From NCBI GenBank assembly GCA_035463515.1, contig DATHTG010000463.1, positions 1 through 28,593 of the forward strand: 28,593 nt of DNA, given 5' to 3'. This document shows, one piece after another, positions 1,641-28,593 of this stretch. The position numbers were made by a program, and so were the translations under genes. The notes beneath the pieces were generated by a model. The model saw nothing but the letters and a program-made list of their open reading frames with translations. It did not search any database and was not told the DNA's origin. This DNA is from Candidatus Limnocylindrales bacterium (lineage in GTDB: Bacteria > Chloroflexota > Limnocylindria > Limnocylindrales > CSP1-4). Each line of letters starts with the position of its first letter. Position 1 is the stretch's first letter.

Positions 1641-3995
1641 TCACTCCACCGTTAGCGCGGCTCGCATCCGCTCCTGCGGTGAGATGTCGTGATCGTTGTC
1701 GCGTCCCCCTTCGGGGATGCGGATCTCGACCCAACGCACCTCGCCGCTGAACGCATGCACGGCGTAGTCAGGCGTCACGGCCGAACCGAGGTCGTTCCCG
1801 ATCTCGAACGGCTCGTCGCTCGCGAACGGGAGCGGCTGCGTCCGCTCGACGCGACCCTCTCCGGCAGGGCGATCGTCGATGAAGAGGCGAACCGTGCCAC
1901 CCTTCGCGGGACCTCCGCCGTCATACTCGAAGTCCATCCGGACGTGATGGCGGCCTTCGGGGATCTGCTCGGTCCCCTCGACGTGGAACAGCTCAACGCC
2001 GTAGAAGTTGTAGCAGTACCGGGGTTGGCCGTGCTTCGCGTAGAGCGCCCAACCACCGACGAAGCCTCCCTGTGCCGCGATCACGCCCTCGCAGTCGTCC
2101 GAGGGCACCACGACCTCGGCCGTCACCGAATGCGACTTGTTCTTCGTGCTGATGATGGTGAACGCGTTCAGGCGTCCGATGCCCTGGTACAGGCGCTGGC
2201 GGGTCCCGCGCGCGAGCACGGGCCGGCCGGCATGGTCGGGGTCGGCGCGTTCGGCTGCCCGATCGTCGAGCGGGAGGACCTGATACTTCGCGGCTTCGAT
2301 CAGGAACAGTCGCTGGAGCTCCTCGAGCACCTCGGGTCGCTCTGCTGCGAGGTCGTGCGCTTGGGTCCAATCCGTGTTCGTGTCGTACAGCTCCCACGTG
2401 TCGTCCGCGAGCGATCGCTCAGGCCAGTTCTCCACCGGAGGGTTGTGCGCCGTGACGGCCGTGAAGCCCTTGTGGTAGATGCCGCGGTTGCCGAGGACCT
2501 CGAAGTACTGCGTCTCGTGCCGATCCGGTGCATCGGGCGCGTCGAAGCTGTAGGCCATGCTGACGCCTTCGATCGGTTGCTGCTGCACGCCGTGCACGAT
2601 CAGCGGCTGCGGCAGGTTCGCGGCCTCCAAGAGGGTCGGCGTGACATCGATCACGTGGTGGAACTGGTGACGCATCTCGCCCCGCGCCCGGATGCCCCGC
2701 GGCCAGTGAACGATCAAACCGTTGCGGGTCCCTCCCCAATGCGACGCGACCCGCTTCGTCCATTGGTACGGCGTATCCATCGCATGCGCCCATCCGAGCG
2801 AGTACTGCGGATACGACCGCGGCGTCCCGAACGAGTCGAGACGCTCACGCAGGAAGTCCGGCGTCTCGATGTCCGCCATCCCGGTCATCGTCAACGACTC
2901 GTTCCAGGTGCCGTGCAGCGTCCCCTCCCCCGAGGCTCCGTTGTCACCGGTGATCACGTAGATCAGCGTGTCCTCGAGCGCGCCGAGCTCTTCGATCGCG
3001 TCGACGACCCGTCCGATCTGCACATCGGTGTGCTCGAGGAAGGCCGCGTAGAGCTCCATCCCGCGCACGAGCACCGGCTTCATCTCGTCGGACACGTCGC
3101 GCCAGGCGGGGATCCCCTCGGGACGGAGGGTGAGGTCGCAGTGGGGCGGGACGATCCCCAGCTCCTTTTGGCGTGCGAACGTCCGCTCACGCGCTGCGTC
3201 CCAGCCGTCGTCGAACTCGCCCCGGTACCGGTCGAGCCAGTCAGGCGGCACATGGATCGGCGCGTGGGTCGCGCCGGGCGCGAAGTACAGGAAGAACGGC
3301 TTGTCCGGCACGAGGCTCCGTTGCTGGCTGAGCCAGCGCTGCGCTCTCGTCGCGAGGTCCTCCGTGAGGTGGTACCCCTCCTCGGGTGATCGGTCAGGTT
3401 CGACCGGCGTCGTGCCCTGCGTGAGGCTCGGGTAGAACTGGCTCGTCTCGCCCCCGATGAAGCCGTAGAAGTACTCGAAGCCGTTGCCGGTCGGCCATCG
3501 GTCGAACGGACCCATGGGGCTCCACTCCCACGACGGCACTTCGTGGCACTTGCCGAGCTGGGCTGTCGAGTACCCGTTCAGCCGGAGCGTCTCCGCGATC
3601 GTCGCCGCCGTGTTCGGACGCACCGAGGTGTACCCCGGGGCCGCCGTCGCCATGTCGGAAACCGTCCCCATGCTGACGGAGTGATGGTTCCGGCCCGTCA
3701 GGAGCGACTGTCGCGTGGGCGAGCAGATCGCCGTCGTGTGGAAGCGCGTGTAGCGGAGCCCTCCGGCCGCGAGCCGCTCGAACGTGGGGGTGCGGCACGG
3801 GCCGCCGAAGGCGCTGTTGGCGCCGAAGCCCGCGTCGTCCAGGAGGACGAGCAGGATGTTCGGCGCGCCGTCCGGCGGGCGGAGCGGCTCGATCGGCTCG
3901 TAGTCGACGTCTTCGTGCTCCGCGAGGTACATCGTTGCGCCCACCTGAGGTCGGTCCGGGATCGGAAGGACCTCACGTCCCGTCCCTGCGCTCAT
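1641..3995 (-). CDS. Cys-type arylsulfatase (actinobacterial AtsA/B/D-like, about 784 aa)
   Basis: PNILLVLLDDAGFG, CSPTRQSLLTGR (CxPxR FGly motif), GKCH, FLYFAPGATHAP, GDNGAS. Start moved to ATG 3995 behind a GAGGAGG RBS; the ORF track's 4151 start is over-extended. Confidence 0.95.
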   Translation of the reverse strand: MSAGTGREVLPIPDRPQVGATMYLAEHEDVDYEPIEPLRPPDGAPNILLVLLDDAGFGANSAFGGPCRTPTFERLAAGGLRYTRFHTTAICSPTRQSLLTGRNHHSVSMGTVSDMATAAPGYTSVRPNTAATIAETLRLNGYSTAQLGKCHEVPSWEWSPMGPFDRWPTGNGFEYFYGFIGGETSQFYPSLTQGTTPVEPDRSPEEGYHLTEDLATRAQRWLSQQRSLVPDKPFFLYFAPGATHAPIHVPPDWLDRYRGEFDDGWDAARERTFARQKELGIVPPHCDLTLRPEGIPAWRDVSDEMKPVLVRGMELYAAFLEHTDVQIGRVVDAIEELGALEDTLIYVITGDNGASGEGTLHGTWNESLTMTGMADIETPDFLRERLDSFGTPRSYPQYSLGWAHAMDTPYQWTKRVASHWGGTRNGLIVHWPRGIRARGEMRHQFHHVIDVTPTLLEAANLPQPLIVHGVQQQPIEGVSMAYSFDAPDAPDRHETQYFEVLGNRGIYHKGFTAVTAHNPPVENWPERSLADDTWELYDTNTDWTQAHDLAAERPEVLEELQRLFLIEAAKYQVLPLDDRAAERADPDHAGRPVLARGTRQRLYQGIGRLNAFTIISTKNKSHSVTAEVVVPSDDCEGVIAAQGGFVGGWALYAKHGQPRYCYNFYGVELFHVEGTEQIPEGRHHVRMDFEYDGGGPAKGGTVRLFIDDRPAGEGRVERTQPLPFASDEPFEIGNDLGSAVTPDYAVHAFSGEVRWVEIRIPEGGRDNDHDISPQERMRAALTVE

Positions 3996-4148
3996 CCCAG
4001 CCTCCTCAGCGCTCGGTCGTGTCGGCTCTCCCTGAGCGCAGCTGCAACGGATCGCTCCGTGGGGTATGTCTCGGGACTGATGATGAGCGATGCAGGCGAT
4101 CGCGGGCAAGCGTCCGATGGAGGCTCGCTTCGGCGCGACGCTCGCGCA

Positions 4149-4174
4149 CATCGACCTCGCTCTCGAGGTCGATG
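4149..4174. repeat. Perfect 11-bp inverted repeat CATCGACCTCG-CTCT-CGAGGTCGATG
   Basis: Read directly; lies in the divergent intergenic region between the sulfatase and SulP. Confidence 0.8.
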
Positions 4175-4252
4175 CCTTCTCTCACGGGTCGACGAGAGCG
4201 TCGACGCGTACCGTGCGTGGAACGATCGGTACGACGCTGCTGGGAGTGATCG

Positions 4253-6055
4253 ATGAGCGCCGCTGACGGCGAGCAGGAGCGATCGGCCGGATCAGGTGAG
4301 CGATCCGACGCCGACCCGGAACTGCCGTTCGTCGATCAGCCGGGGCTGCGACGGCTTCGCGAGGCGGTCGCCAACGTCACCGATCACCTCCCTGGAAGGC
4401 GAACGCTGCTGCAAGACGCCGTCGCCGGACTCACGGTAACGGTCAGCACCGTGCCGGACGGGATGGCGAACGGGCTCCTCGCCGGTGTGAACCCGATCTA
4501 CGGCCTGTACGCGAACATGGTCGGGCCGGTCGTGGGGGGTGCCATCGCCAGCACGCGGCGCATGGTCATCAACAACACCAGCGCGGTATCGCTCGTCGCC
4601 GGGCAAGCCCTCGTCGATCTCGGTGGAGGCGGCGACGAGCGACTCTTCACCATGGTGATGCTGGCAGGCCTGATCGCGCTGGGGCTCGGCATCCTCGGTC
4701 TCGGTCGGCTCACGCGGTTCGTCTCGTTCTCCGTGATGACCGGCTTCATCGCCGGCATCTCCGTCGTGCTCGTGTTGAGCCAGTTGCCGACGATCACCGG
4801 GATCGGGGTCGCTGACGGGAACAGCGTGACGGAGACGTTCCGGCTCGTGGCCACCCTCGGGAACCTCCACCTGGCAACCCTCGCGTTCGCGCTGTCGACC
4901 ATCGTCTTGGCCGTCGGCCTGCCGCGCATCGGGCTCGAGCGCGGCGCGAGCCTGATCGCGATCGTCGTGCCGACGGTCGTCGTCGCGCTCGGCGGATTCG
5001 ACGACGTGGCCTTGGTGTCCGACGTAAGCGAGATCCCGCGCGGGATCCCGGCTCCGGTCCTGCCTTCGTTGTCCCATCTGTCACCCGAACTCATCACCGG
5101 CGCGATCGCCGTGGCCGCGATCTCCCTCGTCCAGGGGTCAGGGGTGGCGCAGAGCGTGCCGAACGCCGACGGCGATCCGAGCGATCCATCTCGTGACTTC
5201 GTCGCTCAGGGAGCCGCGAACCTCGCCGCAGGCCTCGTCCGCGGGCTCCCCGTCGGCGGCTCGCTGTCGGGAACGGCGGTCAACGTGACCTCGGGCGGCG
5301 CCGGTCGGTGGGCGGCGATCTCGTCCGGCATCTGGATGGCGGCCATCGTCCTCGGCGCGCCTGCGCTGATCGCGCGCGTGGTGATGCCGGGCCTCGGCGC
5401 CTTGTTGATCCTCGCGGGGATCCGCAGCATCCATCCGTCGGAGGTTCGATCGGTATGGCGTGCCGGATGGCCATCGGTCGTAGCCGCGACGACGACGTTC
5501 GTCTCCACGCTCGTGCTGCCGATCCAGGTGGCCGTCGGCTTCGGTGTCGCGTTGTCGACGGTGCTGTACCTGAGCGAGTCGTCCAACGACGTGTCGGTCG
5601 TTCAGCTCGTGCGCCGATCGGATGGACACATCGAGGAACGGGAGGCGCCGAGGCGTCTCGAGGACCGCAGCGTCACGGTGCTCGACGTGTACGGGCAGTT
5701 GTACTTCGCAGCGGCGCGCACCTTCGGGCGCCTGCTGCCGGAGGTGCGCAGCGCCGACGCGCCGGTCGTCGTGATCAGATTGCGTGGACGAACGAACCTC
5801 AGCGCGACCCTCGTCGACGTCATCACACGGTACGCCGACGAACTGAAACGGGCGGGCGGGCGGCTGTACCTCTCCGGCGCGAGCCGTGCGGCGCTCGAGC
5901 ACCTCGAACGCAGCGGGTTCCGCCGCAGCGAACACGTACGCGTGTACGAAGCGACGTCGATCCTCGGAGAGTCCACCAGCGAAGCCGAGGCCCACGGCGG
6001 CGCATGGCTCGTCGACAAGGGCGACCGCGAGCCGGAGGCGGCCGACGACGCATGA
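4253..6055 (+). CDS. SulP family inorganic anion transporter with C-terminal STAS domain
   Basis: DAVAGLTVTVSTVPDGMANGLLAGVNPIYGLY, FVAQGAANLAAGL..GLPVGGSLSGTAVN, STAS-like GQLYFAAA; 600 aa, hydrophobic core. Confidence 0.92.
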   Translation: MSAADGEQERSAGSGERSDADPELPFVDQPGLRRLREAVANVTDHLPGRRTLLQDAVAGLTVTVSTVPDGMANGLLAGVNPIYGLYANMVGPVVGGAIASTRRMVINNTSAVSLVAGQALVDLGGGGDERLFTMVMLAGLIALGLGILGLGRLTRFVSFSVMTGFIAGISVVLVLSQLPTITGIGVADGNSVTETFRLVATLGNLHLATLAFALSTIVLAVGLPRIGLERGASLIAIVVPTVVVALGGFDDVALVSDVSEIPRGIPAPVLPSLSHLSPELITGAIAVAAISLVQGSGVAQSVPNADGDPSDPSRDFVAQGAANLAAGLVRGLPVGGSLSGTAVNVTSGGAGRWAAISSGIWMAAIVLGAPALIARVVMPGLGALLILAGIRSIHPSEVRSVWRAGWPSVVAATTTFVSTLVLPIQVAVGFGVALSTVLYLSESSNDVSVVQLVRRSDGHIEEREAPRRLEDRSVTVLDVYGQLYFAAARTFGRLLPEVRSADAPVVVIRLRGRTNLSATLVDVITRYADELKRAGGRLYLSGASRAALEHLERSGFRRSEHVRVYEATSILGESTSEAEAHGGAWLVDKGDREPEAADDA

Positions 6056-6062
6056 GACGACG

Positions 6063-7853
6063 ATGACGGACATGCGGATCGAGGACTACGCGCTGATCGG
6101 TGACACCCAGACGGCCGCTCTCGTCGGTGCCGATGGATCTATCGACTGGCTCTGTCTTCCCAGGTTCGATTCCGCGGCCTGCTTCGCAGCGCTTGTGGGT
6201 ACGCCCGACAACGGGTACTGGCGCCTCGGCCCTGCCGACGGTTCACCCGCTACGAGCCGTCGGTACCGGGGTGACTCACTCGTCCTCGAGACGACGTTCG
6301 AGACGGCGTCGGGAACCGTTCGCGTCGTGGACTGCATGCCACCACGTGCGCGTGACCCCGACGTGGTTCGCGTCGTCGAAGGCGTCAGCGGACGGGTTCC
6401 GGTCCGGATGGAACTCGCGATCCGGTTCGACTACGGCCGCTCGATCCCGTGGGTCCGACGGGTCGGTGGGCGCCTGTCCGCCGTGGCCGGTCCGGACGCC
6501 GTGGTCCTCGAGACGCCGGTGGCGACGGTTGGCGAGGGGTTCCGCACCGTCGCGAACTTCGAGGTCTCGGCGGGCGACCGCGTGCCGTTCGCCCTCGAGT
6601 GGCATCCATCGCACGAGCCGTTCGGCGCAGTCGTCGACGCCCTCGAGGAGGTGCGCGAAACCCAAGCATGGTGGGAAACGTGGGCGCAGCGGTGCACGTA
6701 CGACGGCGAATGGCGCGACGCCGTCGTTCGGTCGCTCATCACGCTCAAGGCACTCACGTACGCGCCGAGCGGCGGCATCGTCGCGGCGCCGACCACGTCG
6801 CTGCCCGAGCAGCTCGGCGGGGTCAGGAACTGGGATTACCGGTACTGCTGGCTGCGCGACGCCACGTTCACACTCGACGCCCTGATGGCGGCCGGATACG
6901 ACGGCGAGGCGCAGGCGTGGCGCGATTGGTTGCTCCGCGCCGTCGCCGGTTCACCGGGGGACCTGCAGATCATGTACGGATGCGGCGGCGAGCGTCGACT
7001 CCCCGAGATGACGCTCGAGTGGCTCTCGGGGTACCGGGGCGCTCGTCCGGTTCGGATCGGGAACGCCGCCGTCGACCAGCTCCAGCTGGACGTGTTCGGC
7101 GAGGTGATGGACTCGATGCATCAGGCGCGTGATATCGGCATCCCTCCCGATCCGTACAGCTGGGATCTCCAGCGGACGTTGATGGATTTCCTCGAGTCCA
7201 CGTGGACCGAACCGGACGAGGGGATCTGGGAGGTCCGCGGACCACGGCGTCACTTCACGCACTCGAAGGTCATGGCGTGGGTGGCAGCCGATCGTGCCGT
7301 CGACGCGGTCGAGCGGTTCGGGCTCGACGGTCCGGCCGACCGTTGGCGCGCCCTCCGTGAGGCGATACGAGCCGAGGTCGACGAGAAGGGATGGGATGCC
7401 GAGCGCGGCACGTACACGCAGTTCTACGGCAGTCGCGAACTCGATGCGTCGCTCCTCATGCTGCCGCTCGTCGGATACCTCCGCGCGGACGACGCGCGGA
7501 TGCAGGGAACGCTCGCTGCCATCGAGCGAGAACTGTGCCGCGACGGGCTCGTCTACCGCTACGAGCAGTTCGACTCCTCGGTCGACGGTCTTCCACCTGG
7601 CGAAGGAGCGTTCCTCGCCTGCACCTTCTGGCTCGCCGACAACTACGCGCTCGCAGGACGGCCCGACGAAGCTCGGACGACGTTCGAACGTCTGTTGTCG
7701 CTTCGGAACGACGTCGGTCTGCTCGCGGAGCAATACGACGTCGTGACGGGCCGTCAGACAGGGAACTTCCCGCAGGCGTTCTCGCACGTGCCGCTGGTGA
7801 GCACGGCACTGAACCTCTCATCGCCGCGAGCGCCGACGGCGACGCGCGGGTGA
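6063..7853 (+). CDS. Glycoside hydrolase family 15 (trehalase/glucoamylase-like), copy 1
   Basis: MRIEDYALIGD, IDWLCLPRFDS, AAPTTSLPE..GGVRNWDYRYCWLRDA, GIWEVRG, LLAEQYD, GNFPQAFSH. Start is ATG 6063 or 6072, just after the SulP stop. Confidence 0.93.
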   Translation: MTDMRIEDYALIGDTQTAALVGADGSIDWLCLPRFDSAACFAALVGTPDNGYWRLGPADGSPATSRRYRGDSLVLETTFETASGTVRVVDCMPPRARDPDVVRVVEGVSGRVPVRMELAIRFDYGRSIPWVRRVGGRLSAVAGPDAVVLETPVATVGEGFRTVANFEVSAGDRVPFALEWHPSHEPFGAVVDALEEVRETQAWWETWAQRCTYDGEWRDAVVRSLITLKALTYAPSGGIVAAPTTSLPEQLGGVRNWDYRYCWLRDATFTLDALMAAGYDGEAQAWRDWLLRAVAGSPGDLQIMYGCGGERRLPEMTLEWLSGYRGARPVRIGNAAVDQLQLDVFGEVMDSMHQARDIGIPPDPYSWDLQRTLMDFLESTWTEPDEGIWEVRGPRRHFTHSKVMAWVAADRAVDAVERFGLDGPADRWRALREAIRAEVDEKGWDAERGTYTQFYGSRELDASLLMLPLVGYLRADDARMQGTLAAIERELCRDGLVYRYEQFDSSVDGLPPGEGAFLACTFWLADNYALAGRPDEARTTFERLLSLRNDVGLLAEQYDVVTGRQTGNFPQAFSHVPLVSTALNLSSPRAPTATRG

Positions 7854-7943: not shown

Positions 7944-8459
7944 TCATCCGCCGTCGCCTGGACCTGGCCGACGCGCCGCTTCGAGAGCCTCACGCAACCT
8001 CCGGTCCCCTTCTTGACTCAGGGTCGTCACCATGACGCGGCCGCCGAAGCGCTGCATCGCCTCGAGGACCGCATCCGCATCGACGCTATGCGCAAGAACG
8101 AACAGCGCCGAACGATCTGTGTGCATCGCCGACGCGATCTCCTTGATGAAGTCATCGTCGATCCCATAGTCGGAGAATGCGCCGACGACGGCGCCCGCAC
8201 CCGCACCCACGAGTGCTCCCAGCGCCGGGGCGAGGAACAGCATGCCGATCAGCGCCCCGCTGGCGGCACCCGTAGCAGCACCGACGACCGCCGGCGGTCC
8301 CACGTACTGACGCAGCCGGAGTTTGCCGTCGTCGCCTCGAATAGCGACGACTGCATCCTCCACGACGATCTTGTCGTCGACCTGCAACTGCGCGAGGACT
8401 CGTCGGACCTCGGCCGCCGTGTCCTCATCCGGATAGCTGATGACGCAGAGATCGCTCAT
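7944..8459 (-). CDS. DUF1269-family membrane protein
   Basis: MSDLCVISYPDE..A..V...L..L...VEDAVV, glycine-zipper GAATGAASGALIGMLF..ALGALVGAGAG, DYGIDDDFIKE; GGAGG RBS. Confidence 0.85.
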   Translation of the reverse strand: MSDLCVISYPDEDTAAEVRRVLAQLQVDDKIVVEDAVVAIRGDDGKLRLRQYVGPPAVVGAATGAASGALIGMLFLAPALGALVGAGAGAVVGAFSDYGIDDDFIKEIASAMHTDRSALFVLAHSVDADAVLEAMQRFGGRVMVTTLSQEGDRRLREALEAARRPGPGDGG

Positions 8460-8480
8460 GCAGCCTCCGATGCGCGCGCG

Positions 8481-8864
8481 TCAGTCGTCCCACCACGACA
8501 GGGGATAGCCCGCATCGTTCCACGCGATGAGCCCACCGTCGAGGACGGCGACGCGTTCCGCAGCGAAGCCTGCGTCGATGATCCGCCGCGCCGCCCGGGC
8601 GCTGGTGTACTCATCCGGTCAGGTGCAGTAGAAGATGACGGCTCGTTCCTCCGGGACGGAACGTAACGAAGGGTGATCGGGTGATCGGCGGATCTCCGCG
8701 AACGGGAGCGAGATCGCATCGGCGGCGTGCGCCTCGCCGAACGATGCCGCGTCCCGCGTGTCGACGAGCACGGCGCGACCGGCGTGCACGAGCGACCGAG
8801 CTTCGGCCGCAGAGACCCGCCTGATCCGCTCGAGCTCGGACCGGTTGACGCGTACGTCGCTCAT
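8481..8864 (-). CDS. Rhodanese-like domain protein with in-frame UGA (probable selenocysteine at codon 82), 127 aa
   Basis: MSDVRVNRSELERIRRVSAAEARSLVHAGRAVLVDTRD..F.EAHAADAISLP...AVIFYCT-UGA(8621-8619)-PDEYTSARAARRIIDAGFAAERVAVLDGGLIAWNDAGYPLSWWDD*. The C-terminal rhodanese signature LxGGxxAW appears only after the UGA. Confidence 0.85.
8577..8615 (-). promoter_or_regulatory. Candidate bacterial SECIS hairpin immediately 3' of the UGA
   Basis: Counting from the UGA, GAUGA(+4..+8) pairs with UCAUC(+38..+42) and GCGCC(+17..+21) pairs with GGCGC(+27..+31) around a G-rich apical loop CGGGC(+22..+26). Paired by eye, no folding software run. Confidence 0.55.
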
Positions 8865-8901
8865 CCGCTCTCCGCCGTATCGCTGAGGTCGATCACCGCA
8901 C

Positions 8902-8925
8902 TTCCCGACCAGCACGCTCCGAAAC
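8902..8925 (-). promoter_or_regulatory. SigB/SigF-type promoter candidate GTTT-N15-GGGAA upstream of the rhodanese
   Basis: Minus strand reads GTTT CGGAGCGTGCTGGTC GGGAA, about 38 nt before ATG 8864; the same motif and spacing recur at 18825. Confidence 0.55.
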
Positions 8926-16369: not shown

Positions 16370-18178
16370 ATGGCAGCGACCCGCCGACGGGATGGACACC
16401 AGGTGTACGCGCCGATCCGGGATCATGCAGCGATCGGGGACGGCCGGACCGTCGCCCTGATCACACGCGACGGCACGATCGACTGGCTGTGTCTGCCTGA
16501 CCTCGACTCTCCGAGCGTCTTCGGCTCGCTGTTGGACGCGCGCACCGGCGGAAGCTTCGTCCTCGCACCCAACGTCCCGTTCGAGGTACGCCGTCGGTAC
16601 GCGCCGTCGACGAACGTGCTCGAGACGACGTTCGAGACGGCAACAGGCTCGGTGCGCGTGCTCGATGCGATGACGTTGCCTGACGACGATGGCCTCGCAC
16701 CGACGCGTGAGCTGTGCCGTCGCGTGGAAGCGATCTCGGGGCGCGTTCCGATGCGGTGGCGGGTCGAGCCGAGGTTCGGCTACGGCGCCGCACGTTCGAC
16801 GATCGGCGAGCGGAGCGGCATCCCGGTGGCGACCTCAGGGAACCTCGCGATCGCGGTGCACGCGTGGGACGCGGGGACGCCCGCGATCACCGGCGGGACG
16901 ATCGGTGCGACATTCACCGCGACCACGGAAGCGCCCGCGACGATCGCGATGTCGGTGGCGGCGCAGGAACCGCTCGTCTTCCCGACGCGTGACGACGTTG
17001 AGCGACGCCTCGATGGCACGATCGCGTACTGGCGCGCGTTCGTCCGCGGGAGCTCCTTCCCGATGGCTTGGCGCGACGCCGTCGAGCGAAGCGCGCTCAC
17101 CCTCAAGCTGCTCGTCTTCGCGCCGTCGGGTGCCCTCGCCGCTGCGGCGACGACGTCGCTGCCGGAGTCGCTCGGCGGCGAACGGAACTGGGACTATCGC
17201 TTCTGCTGGGTCCGCGACGCCGCCTTCACGCTCTCGGCGTTGTTCCGTCTCGGCGACGTACGCGAAGCGGAGTCGTTCTTCTGGTGGCTGATGCACGCGT
17301 CGCAGCGATCGCATCCTTCGCTCGACGTCCTCTACGCGCTGGACGGCGGCTTGGGGAGCCGCGAGCGCACGCTGTCGCTCGAGGGGTACGCGGGATCACG
17401 TCCGGTGCGGATCGGGAACGCTGCCGCGGAGCAGATGCAGCTGGACGTCTACGGCGAGCTGCTCCACGCAGCATCGACCTACGTGTCCGCGAGGCACCGT
17501 CTCGACGCCGACATCGCGCGGCGTCTCGCGGGGATCGCCGATCTCGTCTGCGATCGGTGGGGGCGTCCGGACGCCGGCATCTGGGAGGTCCGCAGCACCG
17601 AACGGCACTTTACTCACTCCAAGATGATGTGCTGGATCGGACTCGACCGAGCGATCCAGATGGCGAGCGACGGCCACATCAGCGGGAACGTCGAGCGATG
17701 GACCGCGGAGCGGGACGCGATCGCCTCGTTCGTGGAGTCGCGCTGTTGGTCCGACGCGCGAGGAACGTACATGCGCGCGGCCGACGGTGAGGACCTCGAC
17801 GCTGCGGTCCTCCTCGGAGGGCTGATGGGCTACCGACCTGCGACGGATCGGCGCATGCGGCAGACCATCGACACGGTCGCGCGAGAGCTCCGCGACGGCT
17901 CAAGCATGCATCGGTACACCGGCGAGGACGGACTCAGCGGCGGCGAGGGCGCGTTCCTCGCATGCTCGTTCTGGCTCGTCGAAGCGCTCGCGCGGTCCGG
18001 ACAGGTGAACCGTGCATCCGCCTTGATGTTTGAGCTCTCGTCCCTCGCGAACGACGTAGGCCTGTACGCCGAAGAGATCGATCCGGATACGGGCGCGTTC
18101 CTGGGCAACTTCCCGCAGGCCTTGACGCACCTCGCCCTGATCGGCGCGGCCGTCGCGCTCGACGAGGAGGCAGCATGA
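16370..18178 (+). CDS. Glycoside hydrolase family 15 (trehalase/glucoamylase-like), copy 2
   Basis: YAPIRDHAAIGDGRT, IDWLCLPDLDS, TTSLPE..GGERNWDYRFCWVRDA, GIWEVR, LYAEE, GNFPQALTH. Start placed at ATG 16370. Confidence 0.92.
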   Translation: MAATRRRDGHQVYAPIRDHAAIGDGRTVALITRDGTIDWLCLPDLDSPSVFGSLLDARTGGSFVLAPNVPFEVRRRYAPSTNVLETTFETATGSVRVLDAMTLPDDDGLAPTRELCRRVEAISGRVPMRWRVEPRFGYGAARSTIGERSGIPVATSGNLAIAVHAWDAGTPAITGGTIGATFTATTEAPATIAMSVAAQEPLVFPTRDDVERRLDGTIAYWRAFVRGSSFPMAWRDAVERSALTLKLLVFAPSGALAAAATTSLPESLGGERNWDYRFCWVRDAAFTLSALFRLGDVREAESFFWWLMHASQRSHPSLDVLYALDGGLGSRERTLSLEGYAGSRPVRIGNAAAEQMQLDVYGELLHAASTYVSARHRLDADIARRLAGIADLVCDRWGRPDAGIWEVRSTERHFTHSKMMCWIGLDRAIQMASDGHISGNVERWTAERDAIASFVESRCWSDARGTYMRAADGEDLDAAVLLGGLMGYRPATDRRMRQTIDTVARELRDGSSMHRYTGEDGLSGGEGAFLACSFWLVEALARSGQVNRASALMFELSSLANDVGLYAEEIDPDTGAFLGNFPQALTHLALIGAAVALDEEAA

Positions 18179-27991: not shown

Positions 27992-28508
27992 TGTCGACCT
28001 CCATCAGCTTGCGGAACGCGTCGCGCCCGTGGCGCGTAAGCGAGCGGATCGTCGCGTCCGTGACGCCCAAAGCGTCTCCCGCCTCCCTGGACGAGAACCC
28101 AAGCATCTCCGTCAGCACAAGCGCCGCTCGTTGCCGCGGCGGGAGCGAGGCCAGGACGTGGCGGATGACCTGCCGGTCGTCTGCGTCGGAGAAGTCGTCG
28201 TTCGAGGGCGCGAGACCTATGGTCCGGCGGACCGCGAGCATCGTCCGCCGATAACGCTTACGGAACAGGTTCATCGCGGTCCGGTAGAGGTACCCGACTG
28301 GATCGTCCATCCCAGCGACTCGGTCCCATCGCTCCCACACGCTGAGGAACGCGTCTTGCATCAGCTCCTCCGCCTCGGCCCGGTTCCCGGTCACGAGCCA
28401 GAGCCGCCGGAACAGGGTGCGAGCCTCAGCTTGATAGAAGGCTTCGAACGTGCGGGATGCCTCGAGCTCGTCGAGCGCCCCGTCCGAGACGACGATCGGT
28501 TCGGTCAT
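27984..28508 (-). CDS. ECF sigma-70 factor
   Basis: FEAFYQAE...LVTGNRAEAEELMQDAF..VWERW, GYLYRTAMN (region 2); LPPRQRAALVL..GFSSREAGDALGVTDATIRS (region 4). Confidence 0.93.
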   Translation of the reverse strand: MTEPIVVSDGALDELEASRTFEAFYQAEARTLFRRLWLVTGNRAEAEELMQDAFLSVWERWDRVAGMDDPVGYLYRTAMNLFRKRYRRTMLAVRRTIGLAPSNDDFSDADDRQVIRHVLASLPPRQRAALVLTEMLGFSSREAGDALGVTDATIRSLTRHGRDAFRKLMEVDSA

Positions 28509-28593
28509 GTCGGTGTATGAACCCTCGAGACCGCCCGAGCGTGCAAGTCCGCGTCGGGACGAGTGCGCCGATCATCGACCCCCCGCCGCTACG

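Follow-up and report, generated by a model that had tools for sequence, protein, structure and literature searches.

Rhodaneses that carry selenocysteine (Sec) two residues after a cysteine (CxU) were first predicted computationally as a selenoprotein family in 2005 and are listed as a selenoprotein in reviews (PMC9312934, PMC13188914). NCBI catalogues the family as NF041203 (rhodanese_LYCAU, 'rhodanese-related (seleno)protein'), a single rhodanese domain of about 126 residues in which Sec stands two residues after an invariant Cys, in the motif [LF]YC[AT]U. A rhodanese-related sulfurtransferase with Sec at both positions (UxU) has been described in Olavius symbionts (PMC1976440). Two kinds of Sec-free relatives also serve for comparison here: the Cys forms with a YC[ST]CPxE motif, among which BH2092 of Bacillus halodurans (PDB 3nhv, 3o3w) is the nearest structure, and the single-domain thiosulfate sulfurtransferases GlpE and PspE of E. 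coli (PDB 1gmx, 2jtq), whose six-residue loop is basic or neutral and contains a single Cys.

We analyzed a window of 28,593 nucleotides, which is the whole of the longest contig (C463) of a metagenome-assembled bin in the phylum Chloroflexota, and found on its minus strand a rhodanese gene with an in-frame TGA at the Sec position of this family. The features of the locus are as follows.

8902..8925, minus strand: promoter-like GTTT-N15-GGGAA motif upstream of the rhodanese gene; these letters are present in the sequence.
8868..8873, minus strand: likely ribosome-binding site GGAGAG preceding the ATG at 8864, as read from the sequence.
8481..8864, minus strand: predicted rhodanese selenoprotein gene, complete, 127 codons plus the terminal TGA (8483-8481), translated with TGA=U.
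8622..8627, minus strand: the C80 codon (8627-8625) followed by that of T81; the first position of the CxU motif is C80, an invariant Cys.
8619..8621, minus strand: in-frame UGA, codon 82, putatively read as Sec (F-Y-C80-T-U82-P-D-E); the TGA column is conserved, with Cys in other relatives.
8586..8605, minus strand: SECIS-like hairpin with core stem 8602-8598 / 8592-8588, loop CGGGC at 8597-8593, weak outer CC/GG pairs and a bulged A.
7944..8459, minus strand: downstream, co-oriented gene for a DUF1269 / glycine-zipper membrane protein (Pfam DUF1269, 4.5e-32).

The start codon of the rhodanese gene (ATG, 8864-8862) was backed by homologues that begin with MSD or MSE, and the codons for Y79, C80 and T81 at 8630-8622 lead directly into the TGA at 8621-8619. 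ORF calling under table 11 yields only an ORF of 81-98 aa at 8481..8864. A sequence-only reading of the window had claimed that the frame continues past this TGA into a rhodanese C-terminus and ends at 8481, just before the ribosome-binding site of the next gene. We verified this layout: another 45 codons are open after the TGA, via PDEYTSARAARR...GGLIAWNDAGYPLSWWDD, up to the TGA at 8483-8481, and the local motif of the read-through protein is F-Y-C80-T-U82-P-D-E-Y-T-S-A-R-A-A. The stop codon is separated from the start of the DUF1269 gene (8459) by 21 bases with a GGAGG in between, and the two genes are probably co-transcribed. No gene neighbourhood was conserved among the homologues, the neighbours differing at every homologue locus examined, and neither the DUF1269 neighbour nor the GTTT-N15-GGGAA motif was conserved at those loci. 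A few kb away from the rhodanese gene, a sulfatase gene (836 aa, minus strand) adjoins a gene for a STAS-domain permease of the SulP family (4253-6055, plus strand), the pair spanning 1641-6055 of the window; this is a sulfur-related context in which we found no sign of a functional link.

The read-through product matched Pfam Rhodanese (PF00581) over residues 18-117 (1.2e-10, 42.2 bits against a gathering score of 22.2). An AlphaFold model built with a 36-sequence alignment as input had a pLDDT of 93.8 and an alpha/beta rhodanese fold, and the top 50 PDB neighbours listed for the model were all rhodanese-fold proteins, the best being BH2092 (3nhv, TM about 0.73). By this model, an 81-residue product would miss half of the rhodanese fold. 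The best NCBIfam match was NF041203, with 58.5 bits against a curated cut-off of 115 (profile positions 15-123 of 126). Three close homologues scored 66-70 bits against the same profile, and the cut-off of 115 was reached in none of the 401 sampled genomes of the host phylum (best score, 107). The score against NF001195 was 38 bits, the cut-off there being 102. On these scores the gene reads as a divergent, sub-threshold relative of NF041203. As the family has been catalogued since 2005, it is a missed annotation and no new type of selenoprotein.

We then examined the column of codon 82 in homologues. TGA was present in 10 of 10 close homologues, which are 57-69% identical and stem from metagenome assemblies as well as named MAGs, and in 20 of 20 of the best host-phylum matches inspected, and the same TGA recurs in more than 30 homologues from at least three phyla. 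About 40 other relatives inspected had Cys at this column, which is the second Cys of YC[ST]CPxE; these came from named MAGs of Thermomicrobiales, Acidobacteriota, Burkholderiales and Sericytochromatia and from about 35 library representatives. The proposal that the UGA occupies the place of the second Cys of YCxCPxExSAR, as a Cys/Sec swap, was thus borne out, and TGA or Cys was conserved at the column as that reading had expected. Residues Y79, C80, C82 and E85 were invariant in the 36-sequence alignment. A word-indexed protein search returned only five close relatives, each interrupted at the same site: four were called as stubs of 80-81 residues ending in ...YC[AT], and one was called at full length by JGI only under TGA=W. 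In the DNA of all five, the TGA is followed by a conserved PDE[YH]TSARAAR...GG[LI][VI]AWN[EDQ]AGYP[ML][KS]WWD[ED]. An exhaustive HMMER search added many single-domain YC[ST]CPxE Cys forms, more stubs with LYCA or LYCT as their last residues, and a small number of 'W' calls. Scanning the species-representative genomes by pattern identified Sec forms in five MAGs, one labelled 'uncultured Actinomycetota' (60% identity) and four of Gemmatimonadota (51%); the Cys forms that it identified, with the motif YC[TA]CPDE, were in the Thermomicrobiales, Acidobacteriota, Burkholderiales and Sericytochromatia MAGs. Among 60 relatives of the host (36 of the same genus and 24 of the same order), nothing above 38% identity was found as an orthologue of the rhodanese, and conservation is therefore shown with metagenomic and other-phylum sequences.

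Selection on the two parts of the gene was compared by pairwise Nei-Gojobori estimates for the five closest sequences. The dN/dS values were 0.11-0.31 after the TGA and 0.14-0.33 before it; since they are equally low, the downstream part is translated. Contigs from four soil metagenome runs, each of a different study, span 8619-8621 without any difference, and neither TGC nor TGG, which had been named as signs of an error or a simple nonsense mutation, occurred there. These contigs differ from the window at other, scattered positions and so do not duplicate a single assembly. For the TGA, an error of sequencing or assembly is excluded.

Bacterial SECIS elements, by the criterion used in bSECISearch, are stem-loops located 16-37 nt from the UGA whose apical loop contains a G; those of the fdhF/FdhA type have an E. 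coli-like apical loop with G23 and U24. In the rhodanese gene, a stem-loop that has G in its apical loop follows soon after the UGA. This hairpin starts 16 bases past the UGA, with the stem at +20..+24 / +30..+34 and the loop at +25..+29, counted from the U of the UGA; the G-rich loop that the sequence-only reading had put at +22..+26 is this same loop, counted after the UGA. The core, GCGCC-CGKGY-GGCGC, was almost invariant in 30 Sec forms whose proteins are down to about 35% identical. All 5 core pairs form in 28 of these 30 Sec forms as compared to 1 of 10 Cys forms, so that the conserved hairpin is specific to the TGA forms. Within it, the third positions of the Ser-Ala-Arg-x-Ala codons were invariant across phyla. 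Changes in the stem were limited to G-C to G-U replacements plus two A·C mismatches, and there was almost no compensatory covariation because the stem hardly varies. Independently, short contigs of other organisms, from the same four metagenomes, accumulated at exactly 8585-8631, the interval made up of the UGA and the hairpin. At 5 bp the conserved stem is short, and only about one sequence in two keeps the outer two pairs. In none of 5 homologues did the 60 bases after the UGA fold with a better energy than their dinucleotide shuffles (z +0.25 to +0.91), so thermodynamics alone gives the hairpin no support in this GC-rich DNA. A scan of 8450-8700 against Rfam gave no match at E values up to 10. 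When the bin was searched for the TGA-N16-hairpin pattern, the rhodanese gene was the sole credible coding match. Like the fdhF/FdhA SECIS, the element is a hairpin in the coding region a few codons past the UGA, with G (GU in most relatives) in a 5-base apical loop. It differs in that the loop lies one codon farther from the UGA (G at +26/27 as opposed to +23/24), the conserved stem is only 5 bp, and the loop of the window, CGGGC, has no U.

The window contig carries no selA, selB, selC or selD gene, in agreement with the earlier reading; the Sec genes are located on other contigs of the same bin (2.56 Mb, 463 contigs, 71% complete). The machinery sought was found entire, with selA, selB, selD and tRNA-Sec all in the bin and FdhA as a second selenoprotein. 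Contig C150 holds tRNA-Sec (74.3 bits; ARAGORN anticodon TCA), selA (433 bits) and selB (281 bits) together, and selD is split between C150 and C238. The cluster is compact, in the order selB-selA-tRNA-Sec on one strand, with selD divergent on C150. The gene for FdhA, the formate dehydrogenase alpha subunit, adjoins selD on C238 and has a TGA in the classical CNRTUH context (CNRTUHAPS); its hairpin, GUCGCC-GGUCU-GGCGAC, lies at +16..+32 with the loop GGUCU at +22..+26.

The sequence-only reading had taken the host for a member of the Actinomycetota, which is very unlikely: WhiB was found in 1 of 81 sampled genomes of the host phylum and was not found in the bin. Among 14 control genomes WhiB matched only Corynebacterium, and the Actinomycetota MAG with the closest homologue has three copies; as a marker it is imperfect, since one Solirubrobacterales MAG also lacks it. 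The companion remark, that selenoproteins are sparsely documented in Actinomycetota, loses its point for the actual host phylum. There, selA scored above its curated cut-off in 308 of 401 sampled genomes, and TGA-bearing rhodanese matches occurred in about 65 of 400. By a hand count in which related genomes are not independent, selA was present in 63 of 65 phylum genomes with a TGA-rhodanese and in 244 of 335 others. The host phylum is an unusually Sec-rich lineage. The genomes with the nearest named Sec forms (the Actinomycetota and Gemmatimonadales MAGs) also carry selA.

It is by metagenomic binning that the window contig is tied to the sel genes. Although it is the longest contig of the bin, the window contig has the most deviant tetranucleotide composition among the 25 longest (0.0125 compared with 0.005-0.009 for most), and its GC content of 68.2% lies 1.4 SD below the bin mean of 69.6%. 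Blastn of the contig gave no synteny with 36 same-genus genomes, only scattered single-gene matches; no close orthologue of the GH15 genes was found in 18 same-genus genomes, and none of SulP in 36. These properties would fit either an acquired accessory region or island or a mis-binned contig. The last 128 bases of the window (28466-28593) are identical to the first 128 of bin contig C68, which is an assembly-graph overlap, so that C68 probably continues the window. The window has two GH15/trehalase-like paralogues that are 44% identical (6063-7853 and 16415-18169, plus strand); compared with the proteins of five named MAGs, they were 58-59% identical to those of Thermomicrobiales MAGs, the closest matches, and 40-46% to those of the Actinomycetota MAG. 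The C68 overlap and the GH15 similarity favour the window contig belonging to the bin.

Taken together, these data suggest, with a probability of about 0.88, that the codon 82 UGA of an intact 127-residue single-domain rhodanese gene is decoded as Sec. The hairpin in the coding sequence would recruit SelB carrying Sec-tRNA(Sec) to UGA82, where the ribosome would insert Sec rather than terminate; the final TGA at 8483-8481, which has no such hairpin, would terminate translation normally. We infer that SelB binds, that Sec is actually inserted and that the product has the chemistry considered below. A contig from another organism binned into the wrong genome would be compatible with a genuine selenoprotein family and yet leave this copy truncated in vivo, in a true host without Sec machinery. 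The composition of the window contig, its GH15 and SulP genes without same-genus orthologues and its lack of synteny point that way, as do the failure to find the rhodanese in 36 same-genus genomes and the fact that its nearest named relatives are Actinomycetota and Gemmatimonadota MAGs. We nevertheless consider this improbable. Both the hairpin and the frame after the TGA are wholly intact, with a low dN/dS, which is not expected for long in a Sec-incompetent host; every named genome with a close Sec form has selA; and the contig does not look actinobacterial, given GH15 genes closer to Thermomicrobiales, and shares the 128-base overlap with C68. Since the evidence internal to the gene is independent of the binning, the doubt about the latter lowers our confidence only slightly.

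The UGA might instead be read through outside the Sec pathway, either by a near-cognate tRNA as Trp, Cys or Arg or by a genome-wide reassignment of TGA, and the JGI call of one homologue under TGA=W and the W at this column in some database relatives can be cited for it. We rate this a shade less probable than a binning error. TGA ends translation in the usual way on this very mRNA (8483-8481) and, under table 11, throughout the window, which argues against reassignment. The only residue that alternates with Sec at this column is Cys, its chemical analogue, and UxU variants exist; the hairpin restricted to TGA forms, along with a full Sec machinery, is exactly what Sec decoding needs. Least probable of all, and hardly to be entertained, is that the TGA arose by simple nonsense mutation or through faulty assembly, the locus then being a pseudogene or the source of a truncated 81-residue protein. 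Gene callers do list the 81-residue form, but the same TGA occurs in the four independent metagenome runs and in the more than 30 homologues of at least three phyla, the protein after the TGA is under purifying selection, and the 81-residue fragment lacks half of the fold.

With UGA82 read as Sec, as we prefer, the protein can be placed among its relatives. It shares with NF041203 the single rhodanese domain of similar length (127 aa) and Sec two residues after the invariant Cys; the motif is FYCTU in the window and LYCAU in three close homologues. Unlike members of NF041203, it falls outside the equivalog, in a clade of its own whose loop and helix read PDEYTSARAAR and whose C-terminus reads WWD[DE]. 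This clade is well supported in the tree (99/94); besides the window protein it holds soil contigs, the sequences from the Actinomycetota and Gemmatimonadota MAGs, a single UxU form of the host phylum and a single Cys form. On well-supported branches the Sec label must have changed four times or more, and Sec and Cys have therefore been interchanged repeatedly. Eight rows labelled Cys (from L047-L062) were artefacts in which the motif had matched LCDCFLE in a transporter domain; they formed a separate long branch, which we ignored. Relative to the YC[ST]CPxE forms such as BH2092, the fold is the same (TM 0.72-0.74) and so is the length of the loop from the strand-end Cys to the helix, with Cys where the window has Sec. 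The mRNAs of the Cys forms differ in having no hairpin at +20..+34, and their downstream TSAR[AV]A is much less conserved. The single-domain fold and the nucleophile at the strand-to-helix junction are common to GlpE and PspE. In contrast to their basic or neutral loop with one Cys, the loop of the window protein is acidic (PDE) and has a second chalcogen residue; with C80 taken as the catalytic residue it would be longer by two residues, a comparison for which the alignments are ambiguous.

In the model, C80-x-U82 lies between the central beta-strand (residues 75-79) and the next helix (83-97), the active-site region of rhodaneses. C80 directly follows the strand, the canonical place, and U82 is at the N-terminus of the helix; two profile alignments disagree as to which of the two matches the canonical catalytic Cys. 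C80 and U82 are most likely reactive as a selenol/thiol pair, because both are invariant, either can be Sec (as in UxU), and both are at the strand-to-helix junction. As such a pair they would act as a selenenylsulfide redox couple or as a persulfide/perselenide carrier. The P-D-E loop is acidic, unlike the basic loops of thiosulfate sulfurtransferases, and the substrate of the Sec-rhodanese is therefore probably not thiosulfate, to judge by the loop. We also considered that the PDEYTSARAAR / WWD[DE] clade might form an orthologous group in its own right instead of having drifted from within NF041203, with a function perhaps other than sulfur transfer, for example a stress-induced Se-S redox switch, passed horizontally between soil phyla with its SECIS embedded. 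We hold this to be doubtful, if clearly less so than the rival explanations above. Possible pointers to a stress redox role are the acidic loop, the promoter motif, which is SigB/F-like, the DUF1269 membrane partner and Usp genes beside two homologues.

General knowledge of selenoproteins is unchanged by this locus, the family having been known since 2005 and catalogued by NCBI; its value lies in annotation. The gene and its close homologues are stored in public protein collections as stubs of 80-81 residues or under a TGA=W call, and they score below the NCBI cut-off of the one family model that would rescue them, so pipelines will keep truncating them. The nearly invariant mini-hairpin common to the surveyed Sec-rhodaneses could serve as a simple search pattern.

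Sec-rhodanese domains are common in the host phylum and include UxU forms and fusions to Na+/H+ exchangers. The UxU forms have the motifs YUTUPDE and YUAUPDE, in L110 (G318:C1:3195100-3195700, LYUTUPDE) and L116 (G244:C25:6420-6950, FYUAUPDE), with TGA at both motif residues in each. The UxU form of the Olavius symbionts has its motif at the same position; the window protein has Cys, not Sec, at the first of the two residues. In one fusion of the host phylum (L049:205-2004, G111:C14), a Na+/H+ exchanger domain (PF00999, residues 33-404) is followed by a C-terminal rhodanese. Its Sec stands at the column of U82 in the window protein (AYCTUPREATSARVAR), and the hairpin is shared as well; L047, L052, L054-L056 and L060-L062 have this architecture too. 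The true stop of the exchanger-rhodanese fusion is probably the second TGA; if so, the product would be a cation antiporter carrying a Sec-bearing cytoplasmic domain.
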